Source of the DNA: Nanobdellota archaeon
GTDB lineage: Archaea > EX4484-52 > LFW-46
Assembly (NCBI GenBank): GCA_018897155.1
Contig: JAHILE010000029.1
Span: 117 to 64,116 of the forward strand
Direction of reading: 5' to 3'
DNA: 64,000 nt
Positions 1,811 through 59,222 of this stretch are shown in pieces; position 1 is the stretch's first letter, and every line of letters starts with the position of its first letter. Under the pieces are notes generated by a model, which was given only the letters and a program-made list of their open reading frames with translations, did no database searches and had not been told where the DNA came from. The translations under genes were made by a program, and so were the position numbers.

Positions 1811-4737
1811 CTATGAAATAGTTCTTTTAAATTATCAAACAGTTTTACGTCAAACTTTCCTTGCTTCACTTCGGCGCCACCGCCTTTTGCGCCAAGGCTT
1901 TTCAGCTTTTCGAATTCTGCATCGTTTCCCTTAAAAACAAAAATTCCTGATTTGTTCACAAGCAGGACCTTGTCAAGCCGTTCTGCAATATTGCGCATTG
2001 TTTGGGCGTCAAAATCAACAAGCTTCACATCGCCTGATTTTATCAGCTTTGCTTTTACTTCCGCAATTTTTTGCGCCAGATATTCAATGTCTTTGCGTTC
2101 TTCTTTCCAGCGCGCAAATAACTCGCGCGAGAAGTCTTCAGGATTTTTGCGTTTGATGCCTTTTGCAAATTCCTGGAGATCCACATATTTTTTTCCCGCT
2201 TCATATTTTATGTTTTCTTTTGAAAGATTTTCGCGAAGCTCATTTATTTTTGATTTTTGGATTGCGTATTCTTCCGCAAAGCGCATAAGCGTTTCAAGGA
2301 CTTTCTCCCTTGGCACAGAAAATATTTGCGCGATTTTCTCAATATCTTTTTCATTCACTTTAATCTGCGGGGAGAGGCTTTCAAAGAATGCATTTAATTC
2401 CTGCAATTCTTTTTGCGCGCCTATTTCGTATTTTTTTGCGGCATTTCCTGCCGCGAATTCGATGCGCACAACGCCGTCCTGTATCTTGCTTGAGCCGATT
2501 ATTTTTATGATTTCGGCTTCTTTTGTGTTTTTCAGATGCGTTCCTCCGCAGGCTTCGACATCAACGCCTTCGATTATTATCGCGCGCAGGCGCTTTCCCG
2601 GAACTGCGCCGCCCTGATACAATCTAAAACCGTATTTCTTTTCCGCATCGGTTCTTGGAAGCAGCATGCTTTGGACCGGAATCGCGTCTTTTACAATCTT
2701 GTTTGCAATCGCCTCAATTTTTTTGATTTCATTGCTGTCAAGAGAATCATAATGAGTTATGTCCAGCCTTCCTTTATCAAGAGTTTTTTCCGCACCCGCC
2801 TGCCAGATGTGGCTGCCAAGTATAATTCTAGCCGCGCCGTTTATGATGTGTGCGGATGTGTGGTGCTGAGCAAGCTGCAGTCTTCTTGATTTTTCAATAT
2901 CGCACTTTACTGTTTCGCCTTCTTTAAACGAACTTGCCGGAGCTTTTAGTTCATGGATTATGACATTTCCTTGCTTAAAAACATCTGCGATTTCAATTCC
3001 ATTTATTTTCCCCATGTCGTGCATCTGCCCGCCAGATGTCGGATAGAACGCGGTTTTGTCAAGGACAATATATTTGCCTTCAATTATTTTCAGTACTTTT
3101 GCATCGAAATTCAGCAGCGCGTAATTGTCAAAGTACAGAATATTTGTTTCAGGAATGCTGCTTAGGTTAAATGTTTTTGCCTTTTTTGTTTCCGCCTTTG
3201 CTGCAACCTTCTCATGCCTTTCCGCGACTTTTTTGTAGAAATCGTCAGGAATAGTTATTTTCAGGCCTGCAGATTTCAGCATTTCCGGGCTGATGCCGTT
3301 TGAGTCGTAAAGCTCGATCAGCTTGCTTTCGGTTGCGTCTTTTTCAGAAAGCCCTGAAACTATTTTTCGCGATTTTTCCTTTGTCTCGGCGTATTTTCTT
3401 TTTTCGACTTCAATTATCTTTTTTACTTCTTCAAGGTTTTCCAGAAGCTCGGGATATTGCGCTTTCAGGTATTTTGCATGCCATTCGCAGACATCGTTTA
3501 AGTCTACATTCCAGCCATACTTGTTTGAGATGTCAAGCGATCTTCTAAGAAGCACGCGCAGATTGTATCCGCCTCCGACATTAGATGGCAGAACTCCATC
3601 AGAAAGCGCGACAAGCAGCGATCTTGTATGGTCGCCGATTGAATAAATTCCTGCAAGAGGCATGATGTGCTCTTTTAATTGCTTTGCGTCAATGCCGATT
3701 TTCTTTGCGATTTGCGCCCATGTTTTTTCAATGTCTGCGACCTCATCGATATTCAGAAGGCCTGATAGCGGAAGGAATTTTTTGAATATCTCTTTATTCG
3801 GCGCGATTCCTGTCAGTTTGTAAAGCTTTTCTGAAACTGTCGGAAAAACAGTTTCATAGCTTGTGCTTGCGCCGTTTGTGAACCATGAGTATCTTTCCTG
3901 CCCGGTGCCCATGTCAAGTACTTTGATATTAAGGTCTTTCACAGCGCCGGATTTTACATCGTACTGCATATATACTTGATTTCCGAGTTCAAGCCCTCCT
4001 GAAAAAAATTCAATTGAAGGCCCCATATTCCCTCCGCCGGCCCAAGCATCCTCATGGAATTGCAAATGCTCTTTCGGAATTTTAACGCCTTCAGTCAGCC
4101 ACGTGTATATGTGGCGCAGATAATCATGCGGCGCGTAATCCTTTGGCTTCATGAACGCATGTTGCCCAATCATGACAAATCCGGAATAATGCCTTCCGGT
4201 AATGCCTACATTATCAATATCGTTAAATCGCAGGCAGAATTGCGGCACAACAAGCGGGTTTGCAGGAGGGTCTACTTCGCCTGACACTACATACGGCTGA
4301 AAATCATAAATCGATGCCTGAACAAAATCCGTGTCGTCCCGCCATCTTGCGGCAACCGGATATCGCGCAATCGGGGTGTAGCCGAACTTTTTGAATGTTG
4401 ATGCGAATTTCTGCCATGTTTCGACATAGTCCATTTTGGCTTTTGCAGGCGTGTTTCCGATAAATGTGTAGCCGCCGGAGCAATCAGGCTCGCCGCACAC
4501 TGTTCTTTCGGAGTCTGTCGACCAGAAGAATGTTCCGCATTTCGCGCATTTTTTTCTCCGGAAGCCTTCTGCTTTGAGCACAGCTACGGGATAGTATTTT
4601 TCAGGCTCTGCCTGGGCTTTTAGCTTGAAGGCGCGCTTCATTTCTAATTCCAGCGCTTTCTGCGGCGCGATTGGGACCGGCATGCGATATGATTGGCGGG
4701 AAATTTTAATAAGCGTTGGTTTAATCACTACCGCCAA
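1807..4737 (-). CDS. alaS: alanyl-tRNA synthetase, archaeal type
   Basis: 976 aa; class II catalytic core, editing domain HxxxH motifs (HHTSAHIINGAARIILGSHIWQAG), C-terminal region typical of archaeal AlaRS. Confidence 0.95.
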   Translation of the reverse strand: MAVVIKPTLIKISRQSYRMPVPIAPQKALELEMKRAFKLKAQAEPEKYYPVAVLKAEGFRRKKCAKCGTFFWSTDSERTVCGEPDCSGGYTFIGNTPAKAKMDYVETWQKFASTFKKFGYTPIARYPVAARWRDDTDFVQASIYDFQPYVVSGEVDPPANPLVVPQFCLRFNDIDNVGITGRHYSGFVMIGQHAFMKPKDYAPHDYLRHIYTWLTEGVKIPKEHLQFHEDAWAGGGNMGPSIEFFSGGLELGNQVYMQYDVKSGAVKDLNIKVLDMGTGQERYSWFTNGASTSYETVFPTVSEKLYKLTGIAPNKEIFKKFLPLSGLLNIDEVADIEKTWAQIAKKIGIDAKQLKEHIMPLAGIYSIGDHTRSLLVALSDGVLPSNVGGGYNLRVLLRRSLDISNKYGWNVDLNDVCEWHAKYLKAQYPELLENLEEVKKIIEVEKRKYAETKEKSRKIVSGLSEKDATESKLIELYDSNGISPEMLKSAGLKITIPDDFYKKVAERHEKVAAKAETKKAKTFNLSSIPETNILYFDNYALLNFDAKVLKIIEGKYIVLDKTAFYPTSGGQMHDMGKINGIEIADVFKQGNVIIHELKAPASSFKEGETVKCDIEKSRRLQLAQHHTSAHIINGAARIILGSHIWQAGAEKTLDKGRLDITHYDSLDSNEIKKIEAIANKIVKDAIPVQSMLLPRTDAEKKYGFRLYQGGAVPGKRLRAIIIEGVDVEACGGTHLKNTKEAEIIKIIGSSKIQDGVVRIEFAAGNAAKKYEIGAQKELQELNAFFESLSPQIKVNEKDIEKIAQIFSVPREKVLETLMRFAEEYAIQKSKINELRENLSKENIKYEAGKKYVDLQEFAKGIKRKNPEDFSRELFARWKEERKDIEYLAQKIAEVKAKLIKSGDVKLVDFDAQTMRNIAERLDKVLLVNKSGIFVFKGNDAEFEKLKSLGAKGGGAEVKQGKFDVKLFDNLKELFHR

Positions 4738-30441: not shown

Positions 30442-30723
30442 TTACTTTAGCTTTCCTAGCCTATCAATTCCTAGTTTTTTAACATTTGGCTTCCATACTT
30501 TTGCGCCCATCCATTCGGGAGCATTTTCCGGAGCAGCAACCTGTTTTCTTGAGCCCTTGAAGATGTGTATCTTCTTGGTTCCGCGCTCTCTTAGCTTGAT
30601 ATCAGTATATCCGCGGTTTGCCGCTTTTAAAGCCGCCTGTCTTGGCTGCGATCCTGTAAATACGCCAACTTCCTTGTTTCCCTGTCTTAGGGAAAAGTAC
30701 CTTTTTTCTGCCATATTCATCAC
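30442..30723 (-). CDS. chromatin protein MC1 homolog
   Basis: 93 aa with VGVFTGSQPRQAALKAANRGYTDIKLRERGTKKIHIFKG... closely matching the Methanosarcina MC1 architectural protein. Confidence 0.85.
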   Translation of the reverse strand: MMNMAEKRYFSLRQGNKEVGVFTGSQPRQAALKAANRGYTDIKLRERGTKKIHIFKGSRKQVAAPENAPEWMGAKVWKPNVKKLGIDRLGKLK

Positions 30724-30842
30724 TCATTTTTTCAAAATATTCTAACTATGTATTGGTTATACTATAACTATGCGCGTATGTAGTATATATACTTTTTCAA
30801 TAGAAGCCGACCATAGCCGAAAAATCGTTTTCAAGCTTAAAA

Positions 30843-31012
30843 AGATGAGCGTTAGGCAACCGACTAATCGGCTGGCGCTTGGGGCGCATTGCTTCGCAAC
30901 GCACATGTTCTTGTAAGATTATGAGCGTCGGGAGAGAGATTTGAACTCTCGAGTCCTTGCGGACACCAGCTCTCGGGAAACTTTCCAGGCTGGCGCCATC
31001 TACTCCGCTCAT
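30843..31012. ncRNA. candidate structured non-coding RNA of unknown class
   Basis: 440-nt gene-free interval; ends pair (GATGAGCG...CGCTCAT), internal T-arm-like hairpin GAGAG-TTCAAAT-CTCTC on minus strand, GNRA hairpin GTCC-GCAA-GGAC, hairpin CCGA-CTAA-TCGG; shares a 16-nt motif TAATCGGCTGGCGCTT with the tRNA-Val(UAC) intron; only annotated ORF here (30797..31012) looks spurious. Confidence 0.3.
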
Positions 31013-31164
31013 TCAGGGATTATTTCAATAATATTGCGCGAGTGGACGCGAGTCCACTTTAAATGCATTTTGACATTCCTGACGAGCGCACCGAGCTAGG
31101 CGACCCCGACACAATGCCTTATTTTTGATTCAATCATTTAAAAGCTATTCGATTATTTATATGT

Positions 31165-32727
31165 ATGAAAGTTTCCGAAAAAACTCTTGCACGCAGCCTT
31201 ATAGAAAAAATACTATCCGGTGAGGTGAGTAAAGAAGGCCAGTTGAATGCGGAAAAGGCGCGCATTTCATCAAAACTGGGTGCATCAAAAATCCTTCGCA
31301 ATTCAGATATCCTTAAATATGCAACGCAGAAAGAGCGCGAAAAGCTTGCAATTCTTGTCAAAAAGCCGATAAGAACGCTTTCAGGCGTTGCAATTGTTGC
31401 GGTAATGGCAAGGCCCGGCGAATGCCCTGGAAAGTGCATCTACTGCCCGCAGGGCGAGAATGCGCCGAAAAGCTACACCGGAAAGGAGCCGGCAGCCCGC
31501 AGGGCGAAGATGTTTGATTACGACCCGTTTGTGCAGGTTACAAAGCGCGTGGAGCAATTAAAAGCAGTTGGCCATAGCATTGATAAAATAGAGCTTATCG
31601 TGATGGGCGGAACCTTTTTGTCGTATCCTAAGCAAGAGCAGGCGCTTTTTGTCAAGCGGTGCTTTGACGCGCTTAACAGAATCGATTCTAAGACCTTGAT
31701 TGAAGCTCAAAAAATCAACGAAACCGCAAAATCAAGATGTGTGGGCTTGACTATCGAGACGCGCCCGGATTTCTGCAAAAAAGAGCACATAGATACCATG
31801 CTTCTGCTCGGGGCTACGCGCGTGGAACTCGGCGTTCAGACACTGTCAGACGCAATTTATAAAAAAATAAGGCGCGGGCATATGATTAAAGACGTAGTCG
31901 AAGCAACGCGGCTTATGAAAGATTCCGGCTTGAAGGTTGTTTATCATATGATGCCCGGGCTTCTCCAGAGTAGAAAGCAGGATCTTGCAATGTTCAAAAA
32001 ACTGTTTAATGATCCTGATTTTCGGCCGGACATGCTGAAAATTTATCCAACGCTTGTTGTTTGCGGCACAGGGCTTTATGATCTTTGGAAGAGCGGAAAA
32101 TACAAGCCGCTTGAAAATGAAGAAGCTGCAGAGCTTGTTGCCGAAATAAAAAAGAACATTCCACATTACTGCAGGATAATGAGGGTGCAGCGTGACATTC
32201 CTCGAGACCAGATTGCGGCCGGCGTTACTGCGGGGAATCTTCGAGAATTAGCCCGGCAAAAACTGAAAGCAATAGGTGAAAAATGCAAATGCATCAGGTG
32301 CAGGGAGGTTGGGCATACGGATTTTAAGCAAAATACATTTGATGGTGTTGTGCAGTTTTGCGAAAAATATCGGGCCTCAGAAGGAACGGAATATTTCATA
32401 TCTTTAGAGGATAAAAATCGCGAAGTTCTCTACGGTTATTTGCGCCTGCGCATACTGGCAAGGCCATTTCGAAAAGAGCTTTCCGGAAAAACATCCGTTG
32501 TTCGCGAGCTGAAAATATTCGGCACATCAGTTCCTATTGGCGAAAAACAAACAGGCGCAATACAGCACAAAGGGCTTGGGAAGCGGCTGATGAAATTTGC
32601 CGAGGAGTTGTCAAAAAAAGAAGGCGCGCATAAAATTGTTGTGATTGCAGCGGTCGGGACGCGCGATTATTACCGCGCTCTAGAGTATTTTGATGATGGC
32701 GCGTATGTCTCGAAAAAACTGATATAA
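31165..32727 (+). CDS. elp3: Elp3-family tRNA uridine(34) acetyltransferase (radical SAM + GNAT)
   Basis: Radical SAM Cys cluster CPGKCIYCP and C-terminal GNAT domain; 520 aa. Confidence 0.9.
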   Translation: MKVSEKTLARSLIEKILSGEVSKEGQLNAEKARISSKLGASKILRNSDILKYATQKEREKLAILVKKPIRTLSGVAIVAVMARPGECPGKCIYCPQGENAPKSYTGKEPAARRAKMFDYDPFVQVTKRVEQLKAVGHSIDKIELIVMGGTFLSYPKQEQALFVKRCFDALNRIDSKTLIEAQKINETAKSRCVGLTIETRPDFCKKEHIDTMLLLGATRVELGVQTLSDAIYKKIRRGHMIKDVVEATRLMKDSGLKVVYHMMPGLLQSRKQDLAMFKKLFNDPDFRPDMLKIYPTLVVCGTGLYDLWKSGKYKPLENEEAAELVAEIKKNIPHYCRIMRVQRDIPRDQIAAGVTAGNLRELARQKLKAIGEKCKCIRCREVGHTDFKQNTFDGVVQFCEKYRASEGTEYFISLEDKNREVLYGYLRLRILARPFRKELSGKTSVVRELKIFGTSVPIGEKQTGAIQHKGLGKRLMKFAEELSKKEGAHKIVVIAAVGTRDYYRALEYFDDGAYVSKKLI

Positions 32728-34437: not shown

Positions 34438-34554
34438 AGGTCCGTGGTCTAGTCATGCGATTGCATAGCAATTTTCCTTATGCTCCGTATGAGAAATTGG
34501 TATGACGCCGCACTCACACTGCGGAGATCCTGAGTTCAATCCTCAGCGGACCTA
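34438..34554 (+). tRNA. tRNA-Val(CAC) with a ~44-nt non-canonical intron in the D-loop
   Basis: Perfect 7-bp acceptor stem AGGTCCG/CGGACCT, T8, anticodon arm CCGCA-CTCACAC-TGCGG, T-arm CTGAG-TTCAATC-CTCAG, followed by T-run; D-arm is interrupted between AGT and TGGTA. Confidence 0.8.
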
Positions 34555-59064: not shown

Positions 59065-59222
59065 TGGGTCAAGCCAGATTTGAACTGGCGACCTCCGCCT
59101 TTCATAAACTGCAAAGTGCTGGACTGCTGATAAATGACCATGCCGAAGGCATGGTCGCTCTAAGCGCCAGCCGATTATGCGGCTGTGTAAGGGCGGCGTC
59201 ATAACCACTAGACTATTGACCC
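59065..59222 (-). tRNA. tRNA-Val(UAC) with ~85-nt intron at the canonical 37/38 position
   Basis: Acceptor GGGTCAA/TTGACCC, D-arm GTCT-AGTGGTTA-TGAC, anticodon stem CCGCC...GGCGG with loop CTTACA interrupted by intron; T-arm GCCAG-TTCAAAT-CTGGC; intron contains perfect hairpin GACCATGCC-TTCG-GCATGGTC. Confidence 0.8.

Follow-up and report, generated by a model that had tools for sequence, protein, structure and literature searches.

A probable tRNA-Ser(GGA) gene with two predicted introns and a repeat-bracketed 3' flank in a DPANN archaeon

A probable tRNA gene between MC1 and elp3

The DNA analysed here, called the window throughout, is a stretch of 64,000 nucleotides (nt) of archaeal origin, in which the minus-strand gene for MC1 (start at 30714/30723) and the plus-strand gene for Elp3 (start at 31165) are separated by a gap of about 440 nt. 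An original prediction had placed a candidate structured RNA in this gap, at 30843-31012, in a segment described as GC-richer and as holding only a doubtful open reading frame (ORF). The coordinates of the two genes confirmed the gap, and the GC content (guanine plus cytosine) is indeed 0.49-0.54 across 30800-31050, compared with 0.27-0.37 in neighbouring intergenic DNA. The ORF (30797-31012, minus strand, 71 amino acids) is spurious: it has no Pfam match and overlaps a tRNA. We found that the minus strand from 31110 to 30926 is very likely a functional, class II gene for tRNA-Ser(GGA), with a 3' flank that lies outside the tRNA and is most readily read as a scar or hitch-hiking repeat.

The predicted gene consists of three exons and two introns (Table 1). 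The acceptor strand of exon 1, GTCGGGG (31110-31104), pairs with TCCCGAC (30933-30927); it is followed by TC, by GCC, which pairs with GGC (30997-30995), and by TAGCTCGGT, a normal D-loop start with A14 and G18 G19. Exon 2 was defined from a partial alignment to the Rfam tRNA model, from ARAGORN on the spliced sequence and from its identity in relatives. Exon 3 contains two hairpins that had been pointed out before: GAGAG-TTCAAAT-CTCTC, on the minus strand and previously called T-arm-like, is present and is the T arm of tRNA-Ser(GGA), and the GCAA hairpin GTCC-GCAA-GGAC, also present, is its long variable arm. As arms of a normal tRNA, they argue against the earlier suggestion of a novel or highly reduced non-coding RNA. 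Exon 3 does not encode CCA, and a 37.6-kb insertion in another assembly, GCA_043814905.1, starts exactly after its end (30926).

We then considered the spliced form. The 84-mer obtained by joining the exons in silico was called tRNA-Ser(gga) by ARAGORN at default settings, whereas none of 2000 shuffled sequences was called (0/2000). In its cloverleaf, the acceptor stem has 7 base pairs (bp) and the anticodon stem 5 bp, the D stem is GCC/GGC, the variable arm is long and the T loop reads GTTCAAATC. The minimum-free-energy fold of the precursor, 31110-30926, was more stable than expected from shuffling (z = -4.33; 0/200 shuffles as stable), and in this fold the acceptor stem (7 bp) and the T arm are formed, along with a long helix inside the intervening 90 nt. 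At a permissive threshold, the Rfam tRNA model (RF00005) aligned over its positions 9-63 to minus-strand 31009-30934, the anticodon loop carrying an insertion. The assignment to a known family for which an Rfam scan had been proposed was therefore obtained, but weakly, as a partial match that scored 13.4 bits where the gathering threshold is 29 bits; the model was scored on unspliced genomic sequence only, in which the introns lower the score, and the related locus L130, which has only an 11-nt intron, also fell below the threshold. The tRNA assignment rests on splicing in silico together with comparative evidence. ARAGORN at a lowered threshold was rejected as a locator of splice sites: nearly any D-loop junction was called, and hence none was placed.

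It is because of the two introns that standard finders miss this gene. At the gathering threshold, Rfam reports three other tRNAs in the window and none in the interval, and ARAGORN on the window reports one tRNA, elsewhere, leaving the unspliced tRNA-Ser uncalled. Similarly, no cloverleaf had been found in 30843-31012 because exon 1 (31110-31090) lies 90 nt upstream and an 11-nt intron interrupts the anticodon loop; what this interval holds, besides the 3' flank, is exons 2 and 3 with intron 2 between them and the final 13 nt of intron 1. The original prediction had seen in it neither the helix-8 motif of signal recognition particle (SRP) RNA nor the P4 consensus of RNase P RNA, and both identities were discarded, as Rfam gave no signal for either in the interval.

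The original prediction treated 30843-31012 as one unit, a novel structured non-coding RNA, in keeping with its local GC richness and several hairpins. All of these hairpins, however, are explained by tRNA arms, by a strand of an intron helix or by the repeat module described below, and the two halves differ in history, the exons being invariant and the flank variable, absent or replaced in relatives. The terminal pairing that seemed to close the unit fares similarly: its strands, GATGAGCG (30844-30851) and CGCTCAT (31006-31012), are both present, but the pairing joins two unrelated features. On the minus strand, ATGAGCG (31012-31006) is the 3' strand of the intron-1 helix, whose true partner is CGCTCGT (31088-31082), and CGCTCAT (30851-30845) is part of the second direct-repeat copy in the 3' flank. 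In GCA_043814905.1 the two halves, and with them the two supposed terminal strands, stand 37.6 kb apart. With terminal strands that belong to different features and a flank that by itself folds like shuffled sequence, the interval does not hold together, and we give a single RNA of this extent next to no probability.

Table 1. Coordinates of the features discussed, in the window unless another contig is named
Feature	Position	Strand	Description
TATA-like box TTTTAAAT	31136..31143	minus	about 26 nt upstream of tRNA position 1
tRNA-Ser(GGA) gene (probable)	31110-30926	minus	3 exons, 2 introns, 185 nt; spliced 84 nt
Exon 1 GTCGGGGTCGCCTAGCTCGGT	31090..31110	minus	21 nt; acceptor strand 1-7, U8, C9, D-stem GCC, D loop to U20
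Intron 1	31000..31089	minus	90 nt, D loop, between nt 20 and 21
Exon 2 ATGGCGCCAGCCTGGAA	30983..30999	minus	17 nt; A21, U22, D-stem GGC, G26, CCAGC, C32 U33, G34-G35-A36, A37
Intron 2 AGTTTCCCGAG	30972..30982	minus	11 nt, canonical 37/38 site
Exon 3	30926..30971	minus	46 nt; A38, GCTGG, GTCC-GCAA-GGAC, GAGAG-TTCAAAT-CTCTC, TCCCGAC, discriminator G
Direct repeat copy 1 CCCGACGCTCAT	30921..30932	minus	last 7 nt of tRNA plus 5 nt of flank
Three-hairpin module	30857..30910	plus	about 54 nt; sense taken from other copies
Direct repeat copy 2 CCTAACGCTCAT	30845..30856	minus	10/12 identical to copy 1
TTTTT run	30839..30843	minus	first oligo-T past the tRNA; after repeat copy 2, likewise in L132
Third intron (A59/U60, T loop)	L132 2783-2671; L135 1784-1750; L137 1831-1713; L138 30-1	minus (all)	absent in window and L130; about 111 nt (L132), 33 nt (L135) and 117 nt (L137); cut by the contig end in L138
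tRNA-Val(TAC)	59222-59065; L145 1227-1327; L146 1289-1389; L147 1148-1248	minus (window)	
37.6-kb element	JBDRJO010000032.1, about 33,100-70,780; L003 1-9790; L006 1-9789		GCA_043814905.1

Exons and introns in related genomes

We compared the locus with those of related genomes, using L-numbers as labels of the comparison contigs; L130, L132, L135, L137 and L138 are the loci that adjoin Elp3. The Elp3 protein of the window is unchanged in GCA_022013375.1, in GCA_043814905.1 and in a Logan contig. Among relatives with 85-65% identity in Elp3 protein, the order MC1, gap, Elp3 is kept, or at least a tRNA beside Elp3, and in all relatives examined the same tRNA lies upstream of Elp3, with differing intron content. 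We found that the exon bases are identical (84/84) in all five Elp3-adjoining loci. In contrast, the adjacent Elp3 gene of these relatives is 67-82% identical to that of the window at the DNA level, and only 39-60% identical at four-fold-type third positions. These comparisons indicate that the exons are under purifying selection while synonymous sites in Elp3 are nearly saturated, and the unannotated tRNA-Ser(GGA) gene is probably functional. The TTTTAAAT box and its spacing are kept in the same five loci, and the box is likely the archaeal promoter of tRNA-Ser.

The relatives also include alleles that lack one or the other intron. L130 reads GTCGGGGTCGCCTAGCTCGGT|ATGGCGCC, with exon 1 fused to exon 2 (CTCGGT|ATGGCG) and no intron 1, and both L132 and L135 read CCTGGAAAGCTGG, from which intron 2 is exactly absent. 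These intron-less alleles fix the exact exon-intron junctions, apart from an ambiguity of 1 nt at intron 2 that is owed to A|A. On the genomic sequence of L130, ARAGORN with its intron option called tRNA-Ser(gga) i(37,11). In the order window, L130, L132, L135, L137 and L138, the D-loop intron measures 90, 0, 92, 92, 28 and 95 nt and the anticodon-loop intron 11, 11, 0, 0, 12 and 151 nt; the 11-nt intron of L130 differs in sequence from intron 2 of the window. The third introns of the relatives, in the T loop (Table 1), have a common core, GTTTCTTTTCTTTCTT…AAGAAAGAA.

The D-loop intron of the window is unusually close to that of L132. Over window 31000-31165 and L132 2834-3000, the introns are 94% identical and the 55-nt promoter spacers 98% identical, while four-fold-type third positions of Elp3 are only 48% identical between the same two loci. 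L135, at the same Elp3 distance as L132, has a D-loop intron only 66% identical to that of the window. The likeness between the window and L132 suggests either that the intron is under selection or that the locus was exchanged recently.

A split or circularly permuted tRNA had also been proposed. Here the downstream GTCGGTTGCCTAACGCTCATC would be the 5' half, joined to the rest through a GATGAGCG/CGCTCATC helix; it loosely resembles exon 1 with the start of intron 1, and is followed by the complement of the stretch just before exon 2. However, a perfect 5' exon lies upstream in colinear order and gives an acceptor stem of 7 bp; the downstream piece would form only 5 bp and lacks nt 8-9. In L130, moreover, exon 1 and exon 2 are fused. 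The downstream piece is itself accounted for by module hairpin 1 on the opposite strand plus repeat copy 2, and it is wholly absent in L137. Because exon 1 is found upstream in perfect form and is fused to exon 2 in L130, the arrangement suggested by the downstream GTCGGTTGCC...CGCTCATC was dropped, and we find it scarcely credible. The suggestion was right in that the interval holds tRNA sequence, but there are neither separate loci nor reversed halves: all three exons run in order along one strand, in a span of 185 nt, neither split nor permuted.

Predicted splicing of the two introns

We next asked how the introns of the tRNA-Ser(GGA) gene might be removed. The ends of intron 1 form a helix of 7+4 bp, CGCTCGT-CAGG / CCTG-A-ATGAGCG (as RNA, CGCUCGU-CAGG / CCUG-A-AUGAGCG). 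The junctions can be drawn as a relaxed bulge-helix-bulge (BHB) with a 4-bp central helix, in which GCUC (G15-C17a) pairs with GAGU preceding the last two intron bases, and with bulges GGU|G (5', 4 nt) and AG|A (3'). Intron 2 has three of four central pairs and no inner helix, again a relaxed BHB form. In L132, L135 and L138 the D-loop intron has diverged in sequence, and the pairing of its central and inner helices is kept. The partner of GCUC in the central helix is GAGU in the window, GAGC in L138 and GUGU in L135, and the inner helix is CGCTCGT/ATGAGCG in the window versus CGCTCGTGCA/TGCATGGGCG in L135. Among the relatives compared, the junction helices are thus maintained by compensatory change, a comparison that covers five sequences only and carries no statistics. 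The 28-nt D-loop intron of L137 has a canonical BHB, CUCG/CGAG with 3-nt bulges GU|A and AU|A.

From these features, a pathway can be proposed. Transcription would start about 26 nt downstream of the TTTTAAAT box and likely stop at TTTTT 30839-30843. The intron-exon junctions would each fold as a relaxed BHB, the archaeal splicing endonuclease would cleave both bulges, and an RtcB-type ligase would join the exons; the 3' trailer would then be trimmed and CCA added. Since the junction of intron 1 is not strict, splicing would need an endonuclease of relaxed specificity, and the relaxed junctions point to a broad-specificity enzyme. Published tRNA intron sites include 20/21, 37/38 and 59/60 (PMC4090602), and single tRNAs with as many as three introns have been described (PMC4033280). 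The DPANN archaea, including Pace- and Woesearchaeota, show more disruption of tRNA genes and incomplete predicted tRNA sets; undetected disrupted tRNAs are considered likely in them, and a loop-bearing EndA of broad specificity has been reported there (PMC5829648).

Several observations weigh against a functional gene. The unspliced gene is called neither by Rfam at its gathering score nor by ARAGORN; a strict scan of the window pre-tRNA, requiring two 3-nt bulges and a 4-bp helix, gave no sensible candidate; and, besides its 4-nt 5' bulge, intron 1 has as outer helix just the 3-bp D stem beside mismatches. We therefore weighed the alternative of a tRNA-Ser pseudogene, disabled by the D-loop insertion, with the true tRNA-Ser(GGA) elsewhere. 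The D-loop junction of the window, which is not a strict BHB, and the silence of standard finders would both suit a pseudogene. Such a relic is difficult to reconcile with 84 exon bases identical across lineages whose synonymous sites are near saturation, with a conserved promoter box, with intron helices maintained despite changes and with a locus that is syntenic in every relative examined. We consider it very improbable.

The 3' flank and an element integrated at the tRNA end

Downstream of the predicted tRNA-Ser(GGA) gene, imperfect 12-nt repeats of the tRNA 3' end bracket some 76 nt of inserted DNA, counted as 64 nt together with one repeat copy. This flank, 30925-30845, is native: both GCA_022013375.1 and GCA_043814905.1 carry it, as do two metagenomic contigs, L008 and L009. 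Among the relatives, L132 shows a related but longer insert (113 nt), bounded by CCCGACGCTCAT and CCCGACGCCCAT and leading into the same T-run. The insert is missing from L137, and L130 and L135 carry other DNA there. The flank folds no better than shuffles on either strand (z = -1.46 and -1.37). In L130, which is the closest relative (Elp3 85%), an ORF of 236 amino acids without Pfam match (2120-2830, plus strand) replaces the flank element between tRNA-Ser and MC1.

A larger insertion was found at the same point in GCA_043814905.1. This assembly is identical to the window through …CTCTCTCCCGACG, up to the predicted discriminator G, and then diverges into an insertion of about 37.6 kb that is absent from the window. 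The first gene of the insertion, beside the tRNA, encodes a tyrosine recombinase of 458 amino acids that passes the Pfam thresholds for Phage_integrase (32.8 bits) and Phage_int_SAM_1 (29 bits). At the far end stands the 12-nt repeat TCTCTCCCGACG, followed by CTCATAATCTTAC…, which is the flank of the window. Attachment (att) sites at tRNA genes are usual for integrating elements. For the 37.6-kb insertion we found both direct repeats of the tRNA end and an adjacent recombinase gene, and because the insertion ends at TCTCTCCCGACG repeats, the last 12 nt of tRNA-Ser serve as its attachment site. The element also contains a DDE_Tnp_IS240 transposase. In L135 (1755-1560, minus strand), two tandem CCCGACGT repeats follow tRNA-Ser, and the sequence beyond them (…GAATGAACAGGAAATGCGGGAAGCAATATATAG) resembles the beginning of the integrase gene in the 37.6-kb element. 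The att site at tRNA-Ser seems to have served repeatedly, in different lineages.

Bracketing by repeats is a signature of site-specific integration at a tRNA att site, and of the features of such a site the 76-nt insert of the window has only the short repeats (10/12). Here, too, some results tell against our interpretation: the flank repeats are short and match at just 10 of 12 positions, no integrase or other element gene lies between them, and a covariance model did not find the three-hairpin module near the ends of the 37.6-kb element (best 11.5 bits, E = 0.17). Because the repeats are short and gene-less, and because the module was not found at the element ends, we infer the scar rather than observe it. 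The flank insert is most likely a scar or hitch-hiking repeat and not a working RNA.

A three-hairpin module at tRNA loci

Most of the flank insert is occupied by a module of three hairpins, CAACCG-ACTAAT-CGGCTG, CGCT-TGG-GGCG and CATTGC-TTC-GCAACG, followed by the tail CACATGTTC; in the window it is antisense to tRNA-Ser. The CCGA-CTAA-TCGG hairpin that had been listed earlier is likewise present in the sequence. We found the module at other tRNA loci. A copy in the JGI contig L139, 87% identical over 54 nt (E = 9e-12), lies 26 nt upstream of an intron-containing tRNA-Tyr(GTA), in the same sense. The intron of tRNA-Val(TAC) in the window matches at 77% over 47 nt (E = 2e-4), in the sense of that tRNA, and L146 and L147 have a piece like hairpin 3, 15-24 nt upstream of tRNA-Val and inside an insert of 150-190 nt. 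Together, three full and two to three partial copies were found. The earlier description of a degenerate intron-derived element is thus fair for 30845-30925, which is homologous to part of the tRNA-Val(TAC) intron, though this sequence is not a tRNA half.

The tRNA-Val(TAC) intron is 84 nt long in the window, versus 27-28 nt (hairpin 1 plus TTATGAA) in three relatives; because the relatives have only the short form, the intron of the window is an expanded version, its extra part being module hairpins 2 and 3 plus about 35 nt. The 5' leader of tRNA-Val, from a conserved TATA box to the tRNA, varies among 0, about 115 and 150-190 nt. In L146 (1120-1288) and L147 (950-1147), the leader insert opens directly after the promoter with a partial copy of the tRNA 5' end, GGGTCAAYAGCCYAGCRAGG; it looks like either an att-type duplication or a decayed allele of a D-loop intron.

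A repeated motif, GGCTGGCGC/GCGCCAGCC, had been noted as shared with the tRNA-Val intron, and it does occur three times in the window, once in that intron (30870-30878, 30988-30996 and 59164-59172). The chance expectation is about 0.4, and three copies were reached in 1 of 100 shuffles. Two of the three GCGCCAGCC copies belong to homologous module copies, in the Val intron and the Ser flank. The remaining one forms the junction of D stem and anticodon stem in tRNA-Ser itself and may be a coincidence.

Wider searches added no full copies. A covariance model (R1) run over about 170 kb of sequence found none, and a scan of viral contigs returned only GC-rich chance matches of 13-16 bits. A scan of genome contigs with the 14-mer ATCGGCTGGCGCTT, too short a pattern, gave 120 chance matches in GC-rich bacteria, and Rfam 15 at E<=10 had nothing for the module besides tRNA and a chance plastid match. 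C/D-box and H/ACA readings, of the module and of intron 1, were ruled out by inspection; in the three module copies inspected, no pair of box C (RUGAUGA) and box D (CUGA) was seen.

These copies raise the question of whether the module, 30857-30910, is a functional small RNA, riding on tRNA transcription units or transcribed from the plus strand. It would be released by splicing in tRNA-Val and by RNase P cleavage of the leader in tRNA-Tyr/Val. Such a role is favoured by the retention of all three hairpins even though hairpin 3 differs wholly among copies (GCATTGC/GCAACGC, GCGTTGC/GCAACGC and GACCATGCC/GGCATGGTC), by the sense orientation of the module in L139, L146 and L147, where a TATA box precedes it and a complete tRNA follows after 15-26 nt, and by the retention of the flank element in two lineages, those of the window and L132. 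Against this, the copy in the window runs antisense to its tRNA, its stems contain two A.C mismatches on the presumed sense strand, and the flank in which it sits folds no better than shuffles on either strand. The module also lacks recognizable C/D or H/ACA boxes and any Rfam match, is absent at this position in L137 and was found in only three full copies. We therefore think a functional small RNA unlikely.

A doubtful case can also be made for the module as part of a small sequence family that moves specifically between tRNA loci in this DPANN lineage. A model in which mobile elements integrate at tRNA genes and leave tRNA fragments has been described (Sugahara 2012; PMC3293823). Were the module the portable terminus of an integrating element, or an intron inserted by reverse splicing, these loci would capture stages of intron gain in archaeal tRNAs, and would link att-site integration scars to the birth of introns, as proposed in that work.

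Relation to known systems

Archaeal tRNAs with several introns at non-canonical BHB sites are known from Thermoproteales, Nanoarchaeota and ARMAN (Marck & Grosjean 2003; Sugahara 2008; reviewed in PMC4090602 and PMC4033280). The tRNA-Ser(GGA) gene resembles them in its colinear exons and in its introns at 37/38 and the non-canonical 20/21, with relatives also using 59/60; its introns, too, are bounded by relaxed BHB motifs, as predicted here, and are present in some close relatives but absent from others while the exons stay fixed. Unlike the crenarchaeal examples, its host is a DPANN metagenome-assembled genome, labelled 'Nanoarchaeota archaeon' at NCBI, and in the window the 5' bulge at the D-loop junction measures 4 nt, the splicing of the gene being a prediction. 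Split and permuted tRNA genes (Nanoarchaeum equitans, Thermofilum, Cyanidioschyzon; PMC3978253) also depend on the BHB splicing machinery and are grouped with the present gene among the 'disrupted tRNA genes', but differ from it in layout, since its exons follow in normal order on one strand within 185 nt.

The module finds a parallel in the transposition of tRNA introns in Thermoproteales (Fujishima et al. 2010, as cited in PMC4033280 and PMC4090602), since it is shared by the 3' flank of tRNA-Ser, the intron of tRNA-Val(TAC) and the 5' leaders of tRNA-Tyr/Val. In contrast to that system, most copies here stand in a leader or trailer outside the mature tRNA, and one is antisense. Integration of the pNOB8/SSV type (PMC3293823) is likewise matched by the tyrosine-recombinase element at the 3' end of tRNA-Ser in GCA_043814905.1, with a 12-nt repeat of the tRNA end, and the 76-nt insert of the window is bracketed by a similar, overlapping repeat; unlike such elements, the small insert carries no genes, and its link to an integrase element is only putative.

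For the workings of such genes, these results leave existing knowledge unchanged. Multi-intron archaeal tRNAs are well described; the tRNA-associated module is the only mildly novel point, and together with the att-like repeats it hints at a link to mobile-element integration. The six orthologous loci, with identical exons and varied introns at 20/21, 37/38 and 59/60, form a compact natural series on intron gain and loss. In addition, the predicted gene would supply an essential tRNA, the G34 decoder of UCC/UCU, that is invisible to ARAGORN and to Rfam at threshold, and in whose place a spurious 71-amino-acid ORF is called. This tRNA-Ser and a second such case, tRNA-Val(CAC), fit the remark that DPANN tRNA sets seem incomplete since disrupted genes are missed (PMC5829648).

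The tRNA-Val(CAC) gene lies at 34438-34554 on the plus strand of the window, with exon 1 at 34438-34453, a 45-nt D-loop intron at 34454-34498 and exon 2 at 34499-34554. Rfam gives it just 30.9 bits and misplaces its 5' end, and ARAGORN does not detect it; once spliced, the 72-mer is called tRNA-Val(cac). Its orthologues in L130 and L137 are free of introns and score 66.7 and 65.5 bits.

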